A stretch of 64,000 bases of DNA from NCBI RefSeq assembly GCF_041248615.1, contig NZ_CP158426.1. One strand, 5' to 3'. Under the pieces are notes generated by a model that saw nothing but the letters and a program-made list of their open reading frames with translations, was not told the DNA's origin and did no database searches. Positions 32,592 through 40,003 of the stretch are shown in pieces (the stretch's first letter is position 1; every line of letters begins with the position of its first letter). This DNA comes from Escherichia coli. GTDB lineage: Bacteria; Pseudomonadota; Gammaproteobacteria; Enterobacterales; Enterobacteriaceae. The position numbers were made by a program, and so were the translations under genes.

Positions 32592-33722
32592 ATGTTCCAG
32601 TTATCCGTACAGGACATCCATCCGGGCGAAAAGGCCGGAGACAAAGAAGAGGCGATTCGCCAGGTCGCTGCGGCGCTGGTGCAGGCCGGTAATGTAGCTG
32701 AAGGCTACGTCAATGGCATGCTGGCGCGCGAACAGCAAACCTCTACGTTCCTCGGCAATGGTATTGCTATTCCACACGGCACTACCGACACCCGCGATCA
32801 GGTGCTGAAAACCGGCGTTCAGGTATTTCAGTTCCCGGAAGGCGTCATCTGGGGTGACGGCCAGGTAGCGTACGTGGCGATCGGTATTGCTGCCAGCTCG
32901 GATGAACATCTGGGCCTGCTACGCCAGCTGACCCACGTACTGAGCGATGATTCCGTTGCTGAACAACTGAAGTCAGCAACAACAGCAGAAGAACTTCGCG
33001 CATTGCTGATGGGCGAAAAGCAGAGTGAGCAGCTGAAGCTCGACAACGAAATGCTGACGCTGGATATCGTCGCCAGCGATCTGCTGACTCTTCAGGCGCT
33101 GAACGCTGCACGTCTGAAAGAAGCGGGGGCAGTTGACGCCACTTTCGTCACCAAAGCCATCAATGAACAACCGCTGAACCTCGGACAGGGAATCTGGCTG
33201 AGCGATAGCGCCGAAGGCAATCTGCGTAGCGCGATTGCGGTAAGCCGTGCGGCAAATGCTTTTGATGTGGACGGCGAAACGGCAGCCATGCTGGTGAGTG
33301 TGGCGATGAATGACGATCAGCCCATCGCGGTTCTTAAGCGTCTCGCTGATTTGTTGCTCGACAATAAAGCTGACCGCTTGCTGAAAGCGGATGCGGCAAC
33401 GTTGCTGGCACTGCTGACCAGCGATGATGCGCCGACCGATGACGTGTTAAGCGCGGAGTTTGTGGTGCGCAATGAACACGGCCTGCATGCTCGTCCAGGT
33501 ACCATGCTGGTCAATACCATTAAACAATTTAACAGTGATATTACCGTGACAAACCTTGATGGCACCGGCAAACCGGCAAACGGACGTAGTCTGATGAAAG
33601 TTGTGGCACTTGGCGTTAAGAAAGGTCATCGCCTACGCTTTACCGCCCAGGGTGCAGATGCTGAACAGGCGCTGAAAGCAATCGGCGACGCTATCGCTGC
33701 TGGTCTTGGGGAGGGCGCATAA
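32592..33722 (+). CDS. fruB: Fructose PTS diphosphoryl transfer protein FruB
   Basis: 376-aa ORF. Confidence 0.94.
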
Positions 33723-34660
33723 TGAGCAGACGTGTTGCTACTATCACCCTTAATCCGGCTTATGACCTTGTTGGTTTCTGCCCGGAAATTGAACGCGGCG
33801 AAGTGAACCTGGTGAAAACCACCGGTCTGCATGCGGCGGGTAAAGGCATCAACGTGGCCAAAGTGTTAAAAGACCTGGGAATTGATGTCACTGTTGGCGG
33901 CTTCCTCGGTAAAGACAATCAGGATGGTTTTCAGCAACTGTTCAGCGAGCTGGGCATTGCCAACCGTTTCCAGGTTGTACAGGGGCGCACCCGAATTAAC
34001 GTTAAGCTGACGGAAAAAGACGGCGAAGTGACCGACTTCAACTTCTCGGGTTTTGAAGTCACCCCCGCCGACTGGGAACGCTTTGTGACTGATTCTCTGA
34101 GCTGGCTCGGTCAGTTCGATATGGTCTGTGTCAGCGGAAGCTTACCGTCAGGCGTCAGCCCGGAAGCGTTCACCGACTGGATGACTCGCCTGCGTAGTCA
34201 GTGTCCTTGCATTATCTTTGATAGTAGCCGTGAAGCGTTAGTAGCAGGTTTGAAAGCGGCACCGTGGCTGGTGAAACCTAACCGCCGCGAGCTGGAAATC
34301 TGGGCAGGCCGTAAACTGCCTGAAATGAAAGATGTGATTGAAGCTGCACATGCGCTACGTGAACAAGGTATTGCGCATGTTGTTATTTCACTGGGTGCCG
34401 AAGGCGCGCTTTGGGTTAATGCCTCCGGCGAATGGATCGCCAAACCACCGTCAGTCGATGTCGTAAGCACCGTTGGCGCAGGGGATTCTATGGTTGGTGG
34501 CCTGATTTATGGCTTGCTGATGCGTGAATCCAGTGAACACACACTGCGTCTGGCGACAGCTGTTGCAGCCCTGGCGGTAAGTCAAAGCAATGTGGGTATT
34601 ACCGATCGTCCGCAGTTGGCCGCAATGATGGCGCGCGTCGACTTACAACCTTTTAACTGA
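33722..34660 (+). CDS. fruK: 1-phosphofructokinase FruK (pfkB family)
   Basis: 312-aa ORF; start overlaps fruB stop. Confidence 0.94.
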   Translation: MSRRVATITLNPAYDLVGFCPEIERGEVNLVKTTGLHAAGKGINVAKVLKDLGIDVTVGGFLGKDNQDGFQQLFSELGIANRFQVVQGRTRINVKLTEKDGEVTDFNFSGFEVTPADWERFVTDSLSWLGQFDMVCVSGSLPSGVSPEAFTDWMTRLRSQCPCIIFDSSREALVAGLKAAPWLVKPNRRELEIWAGRKLPEMKDVIEAAHALREQGIAHVVISLGAEGALWVNASGEWIAKPPSVDVVSTVGAGDSMVGGLIYGLLMRESSEHTLRLATAVAALAVSQSNVGITDRPQLAAMMARVDLQPFN

Positions 34661-34676: not shown

Positions 34677-36368
34677 ATGAAAACGCTGCTGATTATTGAC
34701 GCTAATCTCGGTCAGGCACGCGCCTATATGGCGAAGACCCTGCTGGGCGCGGCGGCGCGAAAAGCAAAACTGGAAATCATCGACAATCCGAACGACGCTG
34801 AAATGGCGATTGTTCTCGGTGATTCCATCCCGAACGACAGCGCGCTGAACGGTAAAAATGTCTGGCTGGGCGATATTTCCCGGGCAGTTGCGCACCCTGA
34901 GCTGTTCCTGAGTGAAGCCAAAGGCCATGCGAAACCTTACACTGCGCCGGTCGCTGCGGCAGCACCGGTTGCCGCCAGCGGTCCGAAACGCGTAGTTGCG
35001 GTGACTGCTTGCCCGACTGGCGTAGCACACACCTTTATGGCGGCTGAAGCCATTGAAACCGAAGCGAAAAAACGTGGCTGGTGGGTGAAAGTTGAAACCC
35101 GTGGTTCTGTTGGCGCGGGTAATGCAATCACCCCTGAAGAAGTAGACGCAGCGGATCTGGTGATTGTGGCGGCAGATATTGAAGTGGATCTGGCGAAATT
35201 TGCTGGTAAACCGATGTATCGCACCTCTACCGGTCTGGCGCTGAAGAAAACCGCGCAGGAACTGGATAAAGCGGTTGCTGAAGCAACGCCGTATGAACCG
35301 GCGGGCAAAGCTCAAACAGCGACCACTGAAGGTAAGAAAGAGGGTGCAGGCGCTTACCGTCACTTGCTGACGGGCGTCTCTTACATGCTGCCGATGGTCG
35401 TTGCAGGTGGTCTGTGTATCGCGCTTTCTTTTGCTTTTGGTATCGAAGCGTTTAAAGAGCCGGGTACGTTGGCAGCGGCGCTGATGCAGATTGGTGGTGG
35501 TTCAGCCTTTGCGCTGATGGTGCCGGTACTGGCAGGTTATATTGCCTTCTCCATTGCCGATCGTCCGGGTCTCACGCCGGGTCTGATTGGCGGTATGCTG
35601 GCGGTCAGCACTGGTTCTGGCTTCATTGGCGGTATTATTGCGGGCTTCCTGGCTGGTTACATTGCGAAGTTAATCAGTACGCAATTGAAACTGCCACAGA
35701 GTATGGAGGCGCTGAAACCGATTCTGATCATTCCGCTAATTTCCAGTCTGGTGGTCGGTCTGGCGATGATCTACCTGATCGGTAAACCGGTTGCTGGCAT
35801 TCTCGAAGGGTTGACTCACTGGCTGCAGACCATGGGGACTGCGAATGCGGTTCTGCTGGGGGCGATCCTCGGTGGCATGATGTGTACTGACATGGGCGGT
35901 CCGGTAAACAAAGCAGCGTACGCGTTCGGTGTGGGTCTGCTGAGTACTCAAACCTATGGCCCGATGGCGGCGATTATGGCGGCAGGTATGGTGCCACCGC
36001 TGGCAATGGGCCTGGCAACAATGGTGGCGCGTCGCAAATTCGACAAAGCGCAGCAGGAAGGGGGCAAAGCCGCTCTGGTATTGGGACTGTGCTTCATTTC
36101 GGAAGGTGCAATTCCGTTTGCTGCTCGTGATCCGATGCGTGTGCTGCCGTGCTGTATCGTGGGTGGGGCGCTGACTGGCGCAATCTCAATGGCGATTGGT
36201 GCGAAACTGATGGCACCGCACGGTGGTCTGTTTGTTCTGCTGATCCCTGGCGCGATTACGCCGGTATTGGGTTACCTGGTAGCCATTATTGCCGGTACGC
36301 TGGTGGCGGGTTTGGCCTATGCCTTCCTGAAACGTCCGGAAGTGGACGCAGTTGCGAAAGCAGCGTAA
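34677..36368 (+). CDS. fruA: Fructose PTS EIIB'BC component FruA
   Basis: 563-aa ORF. Confidence 0.94.
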   Translation: MKTLLIIDANLGQARAYMAKTLLGAAARKAKLEIIDNPNDAEMAIVLGDSIPNDSALNGKNVWLGDISRAVAHPELFLSEAKGHAKPYTAPVAAAAPVAASGPKRVVAVTACPTGVAHTFMAAEAIETEAKKRGWWVKVETRGSVGAGNAITPEEVDAADLVIVAADIEVDLAKFAGKPMYRTSTGLALKKTAQELDKAVAEATPYEPAGKAQTATTEGKKEGAGAYRHLLTGVSYMLPMVVAGGLCIALSFAFGIEAFKEPGTLAAALMQIGGGSAFALMVPVLAGYIAFSIADRPGLTPGLIGGMLAVSTGSGFIGGIIAGFLAGYIAKLISTQLKLPQSMEALKPILIIPLISSLVVGLAMIYLIGKPVAGILEGLTHWLQTMGTANAVLLGAILGGMMCTDMGGPVNKAAYAFGVGLLSTQTYGPMAAIMAAGMVPPLAMGLATMVARRKFDKAQQEGGKAALVLGLCFISEGAIPFAARDPMRVLPCCIVGGALTGAISMAIGAKLMAPHGGLFVLLIPGAITPVLGYLVAIIAGTLVAGLAYAFLKRPEVDAVAKAA

Positions 36369-36378
36369 TAAAAGGTGT

Positions 36379-36409
36379 GTTGCAGGGCAGAAATTTTCTG
36401 CCCTGCAAC
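36379..36409 (+). terminator. Perfect 14-bp hairpin after fruA (probable terminator)
   Basis: GTTGCAGGGCAGAAATTTTCTGCCCTGCAAC, weak U-tract. Confidence 0.6.
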
Positions 36410-36524
36410 ATTTGATGCGCGCAAAGAGAATGACCGGTTTGTGAATGTAATTTTATGAATTTAAATGGTTTTATCTTTTAGTGGAAACCTGAAACTTTCA
36501 TCAAACACTAAGGTTATTTCCTCA

Positions 36525-36553
36525 AGGGCAGATTAATTTCTGCCCTTTTTTAT
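36525..36553 (+). terminator. Second intrinsic terminator in fruA-psuK spacer
   Basis: AGGGCAGATTAATTTCTGCCCTTTTTTATT. Confidence 0.7.
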
Positions 36554-36791
36554 TGTTCCTGTTCTGTGCATCCCGTCACAAATTCTCCGTTTTTATAATT
36601 CAGGCATTTAATCGCGTTTTGTGAGCCTGCTCAAATCTGCCCATTTTGCCTCTCTGGCGGTAATTTACTTTACGTAAAACATGCATACTATGAGCACATG
36701 TTTAAATATGAACACATGTTTAAACCATCTTTGCAGTATCTATATTCTTGTGGATTGACAGGATTGGTAATTTTTTACCAGAGGACGTGCT

Positions 36792-37733
36792 ATGCGCGAA
36801 AAGGATTATGTCGTAATTATAGGTTCGGCGAATATTGATGTCGCCGGATATTCACATGAATCATTAAATTATGCGGATTCAAATCCAGGTAAAATAAAAT
36901 TTACGCCTGGTGGAGTAGGGCGCAATATTGCACAAAACCTGGCGTTGCTGGGGAATAAAGCCTGGCTACTGAGCGCAGTAGGAAGTGATTTTTATGGTCA
37001 ATCGTTGCTAACGCAAACAAATCAATCTGGTGTTTATGTCGATAAATGCCTGATTGTGCCGGGAGAAAATACGTCGAGCTATTTATCATTACTCGATAAT
37101 ACCGGTGAAATGCTGGTTGCTATAAATGACATGAATATTAGCAACGCTATTACAGCTGAATATCTCGCACAGCACCGTGAATTTATTCAGAGGGCAAAGG
37201 TCATTGTCGCAGACTGTAATATCAGTGAAGAGGCACTGGCATGGATTCTGGATAATGCTGCCAACGTACCCGTATTTGTCGATCCGGTTTCAGCGTGGAA
37301 ATGTGTCAAAGTGCGCGACCGTCTAAATCAGATCCACACTCTCAAGCCAAACCGCCTTGAAGCGGAAACCCTGAGTGGGATTGCGCTGTCAGGGCGTGAA
37401 GATGTGGCAAAAGTTGCTGCCTGGTTCCATCAACATGGCCTGAACCGACTGGTATTGAGCATGGGCGGCGACGGCGTTTATTACAGTGATATCAGCGGTG
37501 AAAGTGGTTGGTCTGCGCCGATCAAAACCAATGTCATTAATGTTACCGGAGCGGGCGATGCCATGATGGCGGGACTTGCTTCGTGTTGGGTAGACGGAAT
37601 GCCGTTTGCCGAATCTGTTCGTTTCGCACAGGGATGTTCGTCAATGGCGCTCTCCTGTGAATACACCAATAACCCCGATTTATCGATTGCCAACGTTATA
37701 TCGTTAGTGGAGAACGCAGAATGTCTGAATTAA
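36792..37733 (+). CDS. psuK: Pseudouridine kinase PsuK (YeiC; pfkB family)
   Basis: 313-aa ORF. Confidence 0.92.
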   Translation: MREKDYVVIIGSANIDVAGYSHESLNYADSNPGKIKFTPGGVGRNIAQNLALLGNKAWLLSAVGSDFYGQSLLTQTNQSGVYVDKCLIVPGENTSSYLSLLDNTGEMLVAINDMNISNAITAEYLAQHREFIQRAKVIVADCNISEEALAWILDNAANVPVFVDPVSAWKCVKVRDRLNQIHTLKPNRLEAETLSGIALSGREDVAKVAAWFHQHGLNRLVLSMGGDGVYYSDISGESGWSAPIKTNVINVTGAGDAMMAGLASCWVDGMPFAESVRFAQGCSSMALSCEYTNNPDLSIANVISLVENAECLN

Positions 37734-38659
37734 AAATTTCCCCTGAATTATTACAAATTTCCCCGGAAGTGCAGGACGCTTTAAAAAACAAAAAACCGAT
37801 CGTGGCGCTGGAATCGACCATTATTTCTCACGGGATGCCGTTCCCACAAAATGCCCAGACCGCAATTGAAGTTGAAGAAACTATTCGTAAACAGGGCGCT
37901 GTACCTGCCACTATCGCCATTATTGGCGGCGTGATGAAAGTGGGTTTAAGCAAAGAAGAAATTGAATTGCTGGGTCGTGAAGGGCATAACGTGACCAAAG
38001 TTAGTCGTCGCGATTTACCTTTTGTTGTTGCCGCAGGGAAAAATGGCGCAACCACCGTTGCTTCAACGATGATTATTGCGGCGATTGCCGGAATTAAAGT
38101 ATTTGCCACTGGGGGAATTGGTGGAGTGCATCGCGGGGCGGAACATACCTTCGATATTTCTGCCGATTTGCAAGAGCTGGCAAATACTAATGTCACCGTT
38201 GTTTGTGCCGGGGCGAAATCTATTCTCGATTTAGGATTAACCACTGAGTATTTAGAAACTTTCGGTGTACCGCTAATTGGCTATCAGACCAAAGCGCTGC
38301 CTGCGTTTTTCTGCCGCACCAGCCCGTTTGACGTCAGCATTCGTCTCGACAGCGCCAGCGAAATTGCCCGTGCAATGGCGGTGAAATGGCAAAGCGGGCT
38401 GAACGGTGGCCTGGTGGTGGCAAATCCGATCCCGGAACAGTTTGCGATGCCGGAGGAATCTATCAATGCAGCCATAGATCAAGCCGTTGCCGAAGCCGAA
38501 GAGCAGGGCGTTATTGGTAAAGAAAGCACACCGTTCCTGCTGGCTCGTGTTGCTGAACTGACTGGCGGTGACAGCCTGAAATCCAACATCCAACTGGTGT
38601 TCAACAACGCCATTCTGGCGAGCGAAATTGCCAAAGAATACCAGCGTCTCGCGGGTTAA
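37721..38659 (+). CDS. psuG: Pseudouridine-5'-phosphate glycosidase PsuG (YeiN)
   Basis: 312-aa ORF; 13-nt overlap with psuK. Confidence 0.92.
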   Translation: MSELKISPELLQISPEVQDALKNKKPIVALESTIISHGMPFPQNAQTAIEVEETIRKQGAVPATIAIIGGVMKVGLSKEEIELLGREGHNVTKVSRRDLPFVVAAGKNGATTVASTMIIAAIAGIKVFATGGIGGVHRGAEHTFDISADLQELANTNVTVVCAGAKSILDLGLTTEYLETFGVPLIGYQTKALPAFFCRTSPFDVSIRLDSASEIARAMAVKWQSGLNGGLVVANPIPEQFAMPEESINAAIDQAVAEAEEQGVIGKESTPFLLARVAELTGGDSLKSNIQLVFNNAILASEIAKEYQRLAG

Positions 38660-38752: not shown

Positions 38753-40003
38753 ATGGATATAATGAGAAGTGTTGTGGGGATGGTGGTGTTACTGGCAATA
38801 GCATTTCTGTTGTCAGTGAATAAAAAGAGCATCAGTTTGCGCACGGTTGGAGCCGCGCTGCTGCTACAAATCGCCATTGGCGGCATCATGCTCTATTTTC
38901 CACCAGGAAAATGGGCGGTAGAGCAGGCGGCATTAGGCGTTCATAAAGTGATGTCTTACAGTGATGCCGGTAGCGCCTTTATTTTTGGTTCATTGGTCGG
39001 GCCGAAAATGGATGTCCTGTTTGATGGCGCGGGCTTTATCTTCGCCTTTCGCGTACTCCCGGCGATTATCTTCGTCACTGCGCTCATCAGCCTGCTGTAC
39101 TACATTGGCGTGATGGGGCTGCTAATCCGCATTCTTGGCAGTATTTTTCAGAAAGCCCTCAACATCAGCAAAATCGAATCTTTTGTTGCGGTTACCACTA
39201 TTTTCCTCGGGCAAAATGAGATCCCGGCGATCGTAAAACCGTTTATCGATCGCATGAATCGCAACGAGCTATTTACGGCAATTTGTAGCGGGATGGCGTC
39301 CATTGCCGGTTCGATGATGATTGGTTATGCCGGAATGGGCGTACCAATTGACTACCTGTTAGCGGCATCGCTGATGGCGATCCCTGGTGGTATTTTGTTT
39401 GCACGTATTCTTAGCCCGGCCACCGAGCCTTCGCAGGTCACATTTGAAAATCTGTCGTTCAGCGAAACGCCGCCAAAAAGCTTTATCGAAGCGGCGGCGA
39501 GCGGTGCGATGACCGGGCTCAAAATCGCCGCTGGTGTAGCGACGGTGGTAATGGCGTTTGTCGCAATTATTGCGCTGATCAACGGCATTATCGGCGGAAT
39601 TGGCGGCTGGTTTGGTTTCGCCAATGCCTCTCTGGAAAGTATTTTTGGCTATGTGCTGGCACCGCTGGCGTGGATCATGGGTGTGGACTGGAGTGATGCC
39701 AACCTGGCGGGTAGCCTGATTGGGCAGAAACTGGCGATTAACGAATTCGTCGCTTACCTGAGTTTCTCCCCATACCTGCAAACGGGCGGCACGCTGGAAG
39801 CGAAAACCATTGCGATTATCTCCTTTGCGCTTTGTGGTTTTGCTAACTTTGGTTCTATCGGTGTTGTCGTTGGGGCATTTTCGGCTATTTCGCCAAAACG
39901 TGCTCCGGAAATCGCTCAGCTTGGTTTAAGGGCGCTGGCAGCAGCAACGCTTTCCAACCTGATGAGCGCGACCATTGCCGGGTTCTTTATTGGTTTAGCT
40001 TGA
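38753..40003 (+). CDS. psuT: NupC-family nucleoside transporter PsuT (YeiM)
   Basis: 416-aa polytopic ORF. Confidence 0.92.
   Translation: MDIMRSVVGMVVLLAIAFLLSVNKKSISLRTVGAALLLQIAIGGIMLYFPPGKWAVEQAALGVHKVMSYSDAGSAFIFGSLVGPKMDVLFDGAGFIFAFRVLPAIIFVTALISLLYYIGVMGLLIRILGSIFQKALNISKIESFVAVTTIFLGQNEIPAIVKPFIDRMNRNELFTAICSGMASIAGSMMIGYAGMGVPIDYLLAASLMAIPGGILFARILSPATEPSQVTFENLSFSETPPKSFIEAAASGAMTGLKIAAGVATVVMAFVAIIALINGIIGGIGGWFGFANASLESIFGYVLAPLAWIMGVDWSDANLAGSLIGQKLAINEFVAYLSFSPYLQTGGTLEAKTIAIISFALCGFANFGSIGVVVGAFSAISPKRAPEIAQLGLRALAAATLSNLMSATIAGFFIGLA

Follow-up and report, generated by a model that had tools for sequence, protein, structure and literature searches.

A duplicated terminator hairpin after fruA in Escherichia coli: one working terminator and one U-less stem-loop in the 3'UTR

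Two hairpins with a common stem core stand in series past the end of fruA, in the gap between the fructose operon and the co-directional psuKGT genes. An initial annotation of this DNA offered two readings of the arrangement, a tandem terminator or a short independent transcript ending at the second hairpin. The locus raises the question of which hairpin ends the fruBKA transcript, and of how the pair arose.

Where the fruBKA transcript ends

Within the window (the whole 64-kb stretch of E. coli DNA analysed), fruB (32592-33722), fruK (33722-34660) and fruA (34677-36368) of the fru operon lie on the + strand, followed on the same strand by psuK (36792-37733), psuG (37721-38659) and psuT (38753-40003). 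The 563-aa ORF at 34677-36368 is annotated fruA in identical or near-identical E. coli records, in keeping with the placement of the hairpins after this gene; one record, NZ_OW967178.1, matches the window at 100% identity across 551 bp. By sequence and ORF list, the fruA stop codon TAA is directly followed by a second in-frame TAA (36366..36371, + strand), and the hairpin pair lies within the first 185 nt of the 423-bp fruA-psuK gap. The common core GGGCAGA...TCTGCCC that had been noted for the two stems was borne out: GGGCAGA-N3-8-TCTGCCC has only two matches in the 64-kb window, at 36385-36403 and 36526-36545, against a shuffled expectation of 0.00. The distance between the hairpins, first given as about 115 bp, is 112 nt from stem to stem and 141 nt from core start to core start.

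Hairpin 1 (h1; 36377..36411, + strand) was characterized by folding, comparison and Term-seq. The perfect 14-bp stem with a 3-nt loop at 36379-36409 is present as first described, and RNAfold adds two more for a total of 16 pairs (36377-36392 with 36396-36411), of which the outermost is G-U. Its energy is -27.9 kcal/mol (z = -6.8), a fold equalled in 0 of 200 shuffles; the minus strand folds at -26.6 kcal/mol. The core of h1, AGGGCAGA..TCTGCCCT, occupies 36384-36405, and the stem is longer because GCAACA (36405-36410) complements the upstream flank TGTTGC (36378-36383). No T-run directly follows h1 on the + strand: the tail is CATTTGATG in the window allele, TCATTGGATG in most alleles and GATGATGAC in the B2 type, and a U-tract at h1 is absent from every two-hairpin allele. 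A terminator scan did not call h1 on the + strand and called it on the minus strand only. The U-tract immediately 3' of the stem that marks an intrinsic terminator is thus missing at h1.

Hairpin 2 (h2; 36524..36547, + strand), delimited by fold, conservation and alignment, has a 9-bp stem (36524-36532 with 36539-36547) with at least 5 G-C pairs, a 6-nt loop and an energy of -15.5 kcal/mol (z = -4.75). The clean T-run ascribed to it is indeed there, as a T6 tract at 36546..36551 (+ strand), so that a GC-rich stem-loop runs directly into five or more U. Among 13 non-B2 alleles neither the stem of h2 nor its T-run varies, and the loop alone differs; T5-T6 follows h2 in all two-hairpin alleles.

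A mapped RNA 3' end coincides with this second hairpin. Published K-12 Term-seq data list a 3' end at 2259536(-) with 28,730 reads (Adams et al. 2021 eLife supp. file 1; PMC7815308), and the sequence around it reads ..CTGCCCTTTTT[T]ATTGTTCTGT, also given as ..GGGCAGATTATTTTCTGCCCTTTTT[T]ATTG (PMC7815308). When K-12 coordinates are carried over by the psuK start (2259296 = window 36792) and a 1-nt K-12 deletion, this position is window 36551, the last U after h2, and the end therefore falls within the U-tract of the K-12 allele, which is the allele that the evidence concerns, not that of the window strain. By its position in the file (third sheet), the end probably belongs to the M63-glucose culture. 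It was classed as 'orphan', a class that includes long 3'UTRs according to the authors, 'primary' ends being those no more than 50 bp from a gene end (PMC7815308). A hypothetical end at h1, 42 nt past the fruA stop, would be classed as 'primary' for fruA. The tables for LB OD 0.4, LB OD 2.0 and M63 contain no fruA entry and no 22596xx coordinate (PMC7815308), in LB and M63-glucose cultures in which fruBKA is not fully induced and a weak h1 end could fall below threshold.

We conclude that h2 and its U6 tract are the working terminator of fruBKA, and that the transcript is released at window 36551, which gives fruA a 3'UTR of 183 nt. With neither a U-tract nor a mapped 3' end, h1 does not qualify as an intrinsic terminator. 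A Rho-affected region is also reported close by, at 2259533(-), about window 36554 (supp. file 2; PMC7815308), where bicyclomycin raises downstream reads from 28 to 97 with upstream reads steady at 44 and 43 (PMC7815308). Because the downstream count exceeds the upstream count, we read this signal as a psuK-side effect: Rho may act there on psuK-side transcripts.

Origin of the hairpin pair

To place the pair among its relatives, we inspected the DNA 3' of the fruA stop at 80 fruA loci across Enterobacterales, 79 of them outside E. coli. Most of the 79 carry a single terminator-like hairpin 15-30 nt past the stop. A stem GGGCAGAG..CTCTGCCC followed by T5-T8 occurs in Citrobacter, Enterobacter soli, Klebsiella indica, Leclercia (L031) and Silvania, and many further loci have the same stem core. 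Also found 3' of fruA in C. amalonaticus, E. soli, Kosakonia, Leclercia, UBA3516 and Entomohabitans is psuK, with a fruA-psuK gap of 275-294 bp at 7 of 8 psuK-linked non-Escherichia loci versus 410-457 bp in Escherichia, a difference of about 135 nt. At seven psuK-linked loci, from C. amalonaticus, E. soli, Kosakonia, Leclercia and UBA3516, h2 with its T-run and downstream flank aligns to the lone terminator and to the DNA upstream of psuK, so that h2 is conserved at the orthologous position. What Escherichia alone has in this alignment is an insertion between the stop codon and the conserved terminator, consisting of h1 and the spacer. The core of h1 begins 15 nt 3' of the fruA stop, and that of the single terminator of Citrobacter L005 begins at 16 nt.

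The single terminator elsewhere and the shorter psuK-linked gap together indicate that the terminator hairpin was duplicated in Escherichia. We conclude that h1 and h2 are paralogous copies of the one enterobacterial intrinsic terminator of fruBKA. From the alignments, copy 1 (h1) appears to have kept the upstream context, and copy 2 (h2) the U-tract and the downstream context. As a separate observation, in C. koseri (L096 1143-1250) the terminator after fruA has had its 5' arm replaced by a two-REP BIME.

Within E. coli the gap exists in two types. A full-length window-type spacer is found in 4,229 genomes and a B2-type gap in 1,194, together 5,423 of 5,426; the latter, about one-fifth of E. 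coli genomes, include UTI89, ST131 and the type strain ATCC 11775. Both hairpins are present in all 16 alleles read. UTI89 and the window are 98.4% identical through fruBKA to 36341, 47-57% identical in the gap and about 87% identical over psuKGT. The breakpoint is sharp and lies 27 nt before the fruA stop, the last 8 FruA residues differ, and the dimorphism spans window 36342 to at least 40311. PsuK of the B2 type clusters with E. albertii and E. fergusonii, that of the K-12 type with Shigella and Escherichia sp. E2562, and the B2-type allele is common to E. albertii and E. fergusonii. The outer stem of h1 is TGTTGC/GCAACA in the window versus TCATCATC/GATGATGA in B2 and E. albertii, where h1 folds at -25.8 to -30.2 kcal/mol. 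The spacer of B2 and E. albertii is a two-REP BIME that recurs at no more than 12 sites per genome; since a REP consensus has no copy in the window, its REP/BIME identity rests on the multi-copy matches and on reading of the sequence. E. fergusonii has the same flanks with one hairpin and a T-run, and either lost the second copy or shows that both allele families duplicated independently. In the same species (L101 785-1200) we also noted an insert of about 150 nt past the terminator that resembles an ERIC/IRU element.

The stem of h1 varies among alleles. Over 10 two-hairpin alleles its energy ranges from -15 to -30 kcal/mol. In an alignment of 9 K-12-type alleles, pair 36380/36408 is broken in 5 of the 8 others, so that the perfect long stem is a feature of the window strain's lineage only; the O157 allele has a further mismatch within the core, at 36384/36404. 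The core itself is kept in 13 non-B2 alleles, with pair 36382/36406 being G-C, A-T or T-G by allele and pair 36391/36397 changing from A-T to G-C in allele L004. Across the 9 K-12-type alleles 88% of cells are paired and two pairs have changes on both sides, with 3 of 500 shuffles as high; covariation is modest. Template switching at a DNA palindrome is able to mimic such compensatory change in the absence of selection.

The spacer between the hairpins (36412..36523, + strand), examined by genome searches and allele alignment, is AT-rich, single-copy and poorly conserved. The AT-richness reported at first is correct, at 30-36% G+C as against 56-60% in fruA, though the remainder of the gap has 32-42%, so this composition is not unusual for its setting. 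The window-type spacer occupies one site per genome in 4,230 E. coli genomes, 4,229 of them at full length, and was not found outside Escherichia in the cross-genus alignment. None was found on true plasmids or in phages, the 'plasmid' matches being Mb-sized records or large fragments that resemble chromosomal DNA. It diverges by about 6% from K-12 and about 30% from L004 and evolves faster than the rest of the gap; 36650-36790, by contrast, hardly varies among alleles. We conclude that the spacer is filler without conserved sequence.

Several candidate identities for the spacer were tried and rejected. A mobile repeat is ruled out by its single copy in E. coli and the absence of a true plasmid or phage match, and a REP/BIME by the single site per genome and the 30-36% G+C, with no multi-copy GC-rich imperfect palindromes. 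As an eroded B2 BIME it scores z of about 0 in both orientations, and as decayed fruA 3' end or h2-downstream DNA its local alignment scores equal the shuffle means. As to coding, the earlier statement that no ORF lies between the hairpins is sound for ORFs of at least 30 aa. A 23-aa ATG ORF at 36465-36536 (+) was set aside: it has no Shine-Dalgarno, and its start codon is lost in L004. The 48-aa hypothetical protein WP_001300063.1 (36607..36461, minus strand), annotated in some RefSeq genomes, was likewise dropped; its frame is interrupted by stop codons in the window and in 11 of 12 other alleles compared, and we therefore regard the annotation as spurious. Separately, an IS1 lies inside the spacer of NZ_CP025913.1 (L095) at about window 36434, and another within the fruA-psuK region of NZ_AP027963.1 (H16).

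Taken together, the pair is probably best explained as paralogous hairpin copies made by local duplication, of which h2 with its U6 works, h1 is a U-less 3'UTR stem-loop and the spacer is filler. The place held by h1, just past the fruA stop, is the ancestral one. The duplicated unit would comprise the end of fruA, its flank and the hairpin, and its right edge likely lay between the hairpin and the T-run, a position that would explain the U-less h1, its ancestral distance from the stop and the downstream flank of h2. DNA was interposed between h1 and the U-tract, so that h1 is no longer able to terminate and persists as a very stable stem-loop in the 3'UTR. The stem of copy 1 may then have been extended, by template switching, with an inverted copy of 6-8 nt of its upstream flank. 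In both allele families the stem extension of h1 is an exact inverted copy of the flank just upstream, and an inverted flank copy is the signature of quasi-palindrome template switching. Traces of the duplicated flank itself are marginal: similarity to the fruA stop region was compared just after h1 in UTI89 (p ~0.024) and just 5' of h2 in the window (0.03) and L004 (0.06). Because the similarity of the spacer to the fruA 3' end or to the DNA downstream of h2 is not significant, the mechanism of duplication is not demonstrated.

A different origin, which we consider rather unlikely, is that a BIME/REP, ERIC or MITE element inserted into the terminator and duplicated the hairpin, only to erode later in the majority of E. 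coli. It would fit the two-REP BIME of the B2 and E. albertii spacer, the IS1 copies in the spacer region of two genomes, and two cases which show that the site attracts repeat elements, the BIME that replaces the 5' arm of the same terminator in C. koseri and the ERIC-like insert just past the E. fergusonii terminator. However, the window-type spacer is single-copy and does not significantly resemble the BIME spacer, whichever way round the two are compared. We know of no element that makes a target duplication of about 20 bp, which also counts against such a scar. The idea is one about origin alone, and does not conflict with how the preferred explanation sees function, a working h2 next to a U-less h1.

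The local duplication may have happened more than once. The two families differ in outer stem, spacer and hairpin loop, and the hairpin could have been duplicated independently in each, hairpin-templated copying having acted twice and the proximal copy then having gained a longer stem each time; we regard this as unlikely. Within each family the loops of h1 and h2 are alike (..ACATCTCTGCCC in the B2 type, ..(A/T)TTTCTGCCC in the window type), a likeness that would follow from separate duplications or from one hairpin having been copied onto the other. If copying did act twice, it would be a recurrent route to long structured 3'UTRs, and would also yield a four-arm element able to switch between terminating and letting transcription of the fructose operon run on into the pseudouridine genes.

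Roles weighed for hairpin 1 and the spacer

The first of the two readings offered initially, a true tandem terminator in which h1 stops some transcripts and h2 the rest, holds in part: both hairpins are copies of the fruBKA terminator, but a U-tract and a mapped 3' end are found at h2 only. We think termination at both sites distinctly unlikely. It could draw on the great strength of h1 as a GC-rich hairpin (-27.9 kcal/mol), on the three U near the stem in the window-allele tail CAUUUGAUG, and on the real terminator ancestral to both hairpins. Yet h1 has no U-tract, most alleles reading ..UCAUUGGAUG and the B2 type, with none, GAUGAUGACAAAC; the + strand scan does not call it, and three Term-seq conditions gave no 3' end assigned to fruA.

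The second reading, a short independent transcript, is unsupported. In its fuller form it is a small RNA made of the spacer and h2, either from its own promoter or cut by RNase E from the fruA 3'UTR, and a possible ligand of Hfq by virtue of its AU-rich stretch, terminator hairpin and U6 tail. The discrete 'orphan' 3' end at h2, with 28,730 reads in conditions not meant to induce fruBKA, would suit such a species, as would the AU-rich single-stranded stretch just 5' of the U6 terminator. That class of ends includes long 3'UTRs, however (PMC7815308), and the spacer contains no sigma-70-like promoter site by scan. Nor is a small RNA annotated here: the K-12 RefSeq annotation has no feature between h1 and h2, and an Rfam scan to E 10 gave chance-level matches only, the best scoring 20.5 bits (E = 4.2) against a gathering score of 43. 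Literature searches gave no fruA-linked sRNA, RIL-seq partner or described terminator, and the region has no entry in the text of the SMRT-Cappable-seq and Cappable-seq supplements. No conserved seed can be seen in the spacer, which varies more than any other part of the gap, differs by about 30% in L004 and gives way to a BIME in 1,194 genomes. We accordingly judge a small RNA here quite improbable, although the fruA 3'UTR may yield a processed fragment.

Very improbable is a role of h1 as a minus-strand or half-bidirectional terminator shielding fruA from psuK-side antisense transcription: the scan does call h1 on the minus strand, with tail CACCTTTTAT and a fold of -26.6 kcal/mol, but the T4 run merely complements the fruA TAATAAAA stop region and is missing in B2, E. 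albertii and E. fergusonii (flank AAGAGAAATTATG), the only promoter-like match on the minus strand is inside psuK (36844-36816), with none in the stretch from h1 to psuK, and no minus-strand ORF is intact.

In the preferred explanation, paralogous copies with h2 alone terminating, h1 may be a tolerated relic. Arms 1 and 3 are the same, as are arms 2 and 4, which allows the 3' arm of h1, if free, to pair with the 5' arm of h2. With the 5' arm of h1 withheld in silico, this pairing gave -34.0 kcal/mol, versus -37.7 kcal/mol once the h2 3' arm was available. By forming its own stem, h1 would lock its 3' arm, which would otherwise be free to compete with the terminator, and the long stem would keep that arm sequestered for clean folding of h2. 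By analogy with other U-less 3'UTR stem-loops, h1 may further stop 3'-to-5' exonucleases once the AU-rich spacer has been cut. A regulated termination switch built from the h1 and h2 arms is unlikely: the fruA stop ends 9 nt before the h1 stem, so that a terminating ribosome would open the outermost pairs only, by its footprint 2-4 of the 16 pairs of h1.

Meaning and comparison with known systems

Of the two hairpins, one is a working terminator and the other its paralogue, a stem-loop within a 3'UTR of 183 nt; the feature is ordinary and its history unusual. Elements of these kinds are known, and the pair, which is unannotated, adds a case whose evolution is mildly interesting; it leaves the current understanding of termination unchanged. 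The true end of the fruBKA transcript, 183 nt past the stop, corrects annotations that would name h1 as the terminator, and the h2 terminator accounts for a published 'orphan' Term-seq 3' end. The locus is also a small, clear case in which a terminator was duplicated and a U-tract lost, leaving a structured 3'UTR; structured 3'UTRs are known raw material for regulatory RNAs. Finally, h2 is the border that sets fruBKA off from the promoter of psuK, where adaptive mutations have arisen repeatedly in the mouse gut.

On the psuK side of that border we made several further observations. The likely psuK promoter (region 36660-36700) has a -35 TTTACT at 36664-36669 and a -10 TACTAT at 36686-36691, and the TTTAC of the putative -35 is invariant across genera. 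K-12 position 2257444 is presumably window 36666, by a coordinate offset of +1978, and an A>C change there would turn TTTACT into TTGACT. A recurrent adaptive A>C SNP at K-12 2257444 has been reported from mouse-gut evolution experiments (PMC7518454, PMC9509342). Just 3' of the putative -10, a tandem 18-bp direct repeat occupies 36692-36727 (GAGCACATGTTTAAATAT then GAACACATGTTTAAACCA); it is conserved across genera, has three units in one E. coli genome (L091) and, from its sequence, looks like an operator for some regulator. PsuK homologues of Yersinia, Serratia, Photorhabdus, Xenorhabdus and Pasteurellaceae are 362-372 aa long with N-terminal helix-turn-helix Pfam domains, and E. coli PsuK, of 313 aa, has none of these domains.

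Set beside known systems, h2 resembles the canonical intrinsic terminator in its GC-rich 9-bp stem, 6-nt loop, U6 tract and mapped 3' end, and in its conservation 3' of fruA in several genera; unlike that model, h1 shares the stem core but has neither a U-tract nor a mapped 3' end. The pair is also reminiscent of tandem terminators such as rrnB T1-T2, with two hairpins in series, an inducible operon on the 5' side and the co-directional psuKGT on the 3' side. In contrast to rrnB T1-T2, the distal h2 alone terminates by sequence and Term-seq, and the two hairpins are duplicates of each other, not independent terminators.

A trp-type attenuator (1:2, 2:3, 3:4) likewise has four segments, here with arm 3 repeating arm 1 and arm 4 repeating arm 2, and a 2:3 pairing that excludes the terminator 3:4 is possible at fruA in silico when the 5' arm of h1 is withheld. 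The fruA element comes after a gene, not before one, its 2:3 pairing is weaker than 3:4 (by the two energies given above) and 1:2 is far stronger, and between the stop at 36368 and the stem at 36377 and around them no leader peptide or ligand-binding fold that could serve as a sensor was seen. The 3'UTR-derived Hfq-dependent small RNAs CpxQ, SdhX and DapZ share with this 3'UTR an AU-rich stretch, a terminator hairpin and a tail of at least 6 U; unlike them, the fruA 3'UTR has no conserved seed, promoter-like site or reported Hfq association, and its spacer is replaced in one-fifth of E. coli genomes.

The closest parallels to h1 itself are of two kinds. REP/BIME stem-loops of 3'UTRs and intercistronic regions are known as 3' exonuclease barriers; h1 is like them in being stable, U-less and within a 3'UTR, and the B2-type allele has a real BIME between its hairpins. 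It differs in being single-copy and in bearing no resemblance to the REPs of the B2 spacer, and a stabilizing role is putative. Quasi-palindrome template-switch mutations form the second parallel: for h1 the mechanism is putative and known from its signature in the sequence only, but that signature, a stem extension that exactly inverts 6-8 nt of the upstream flank, is present in both allele families.
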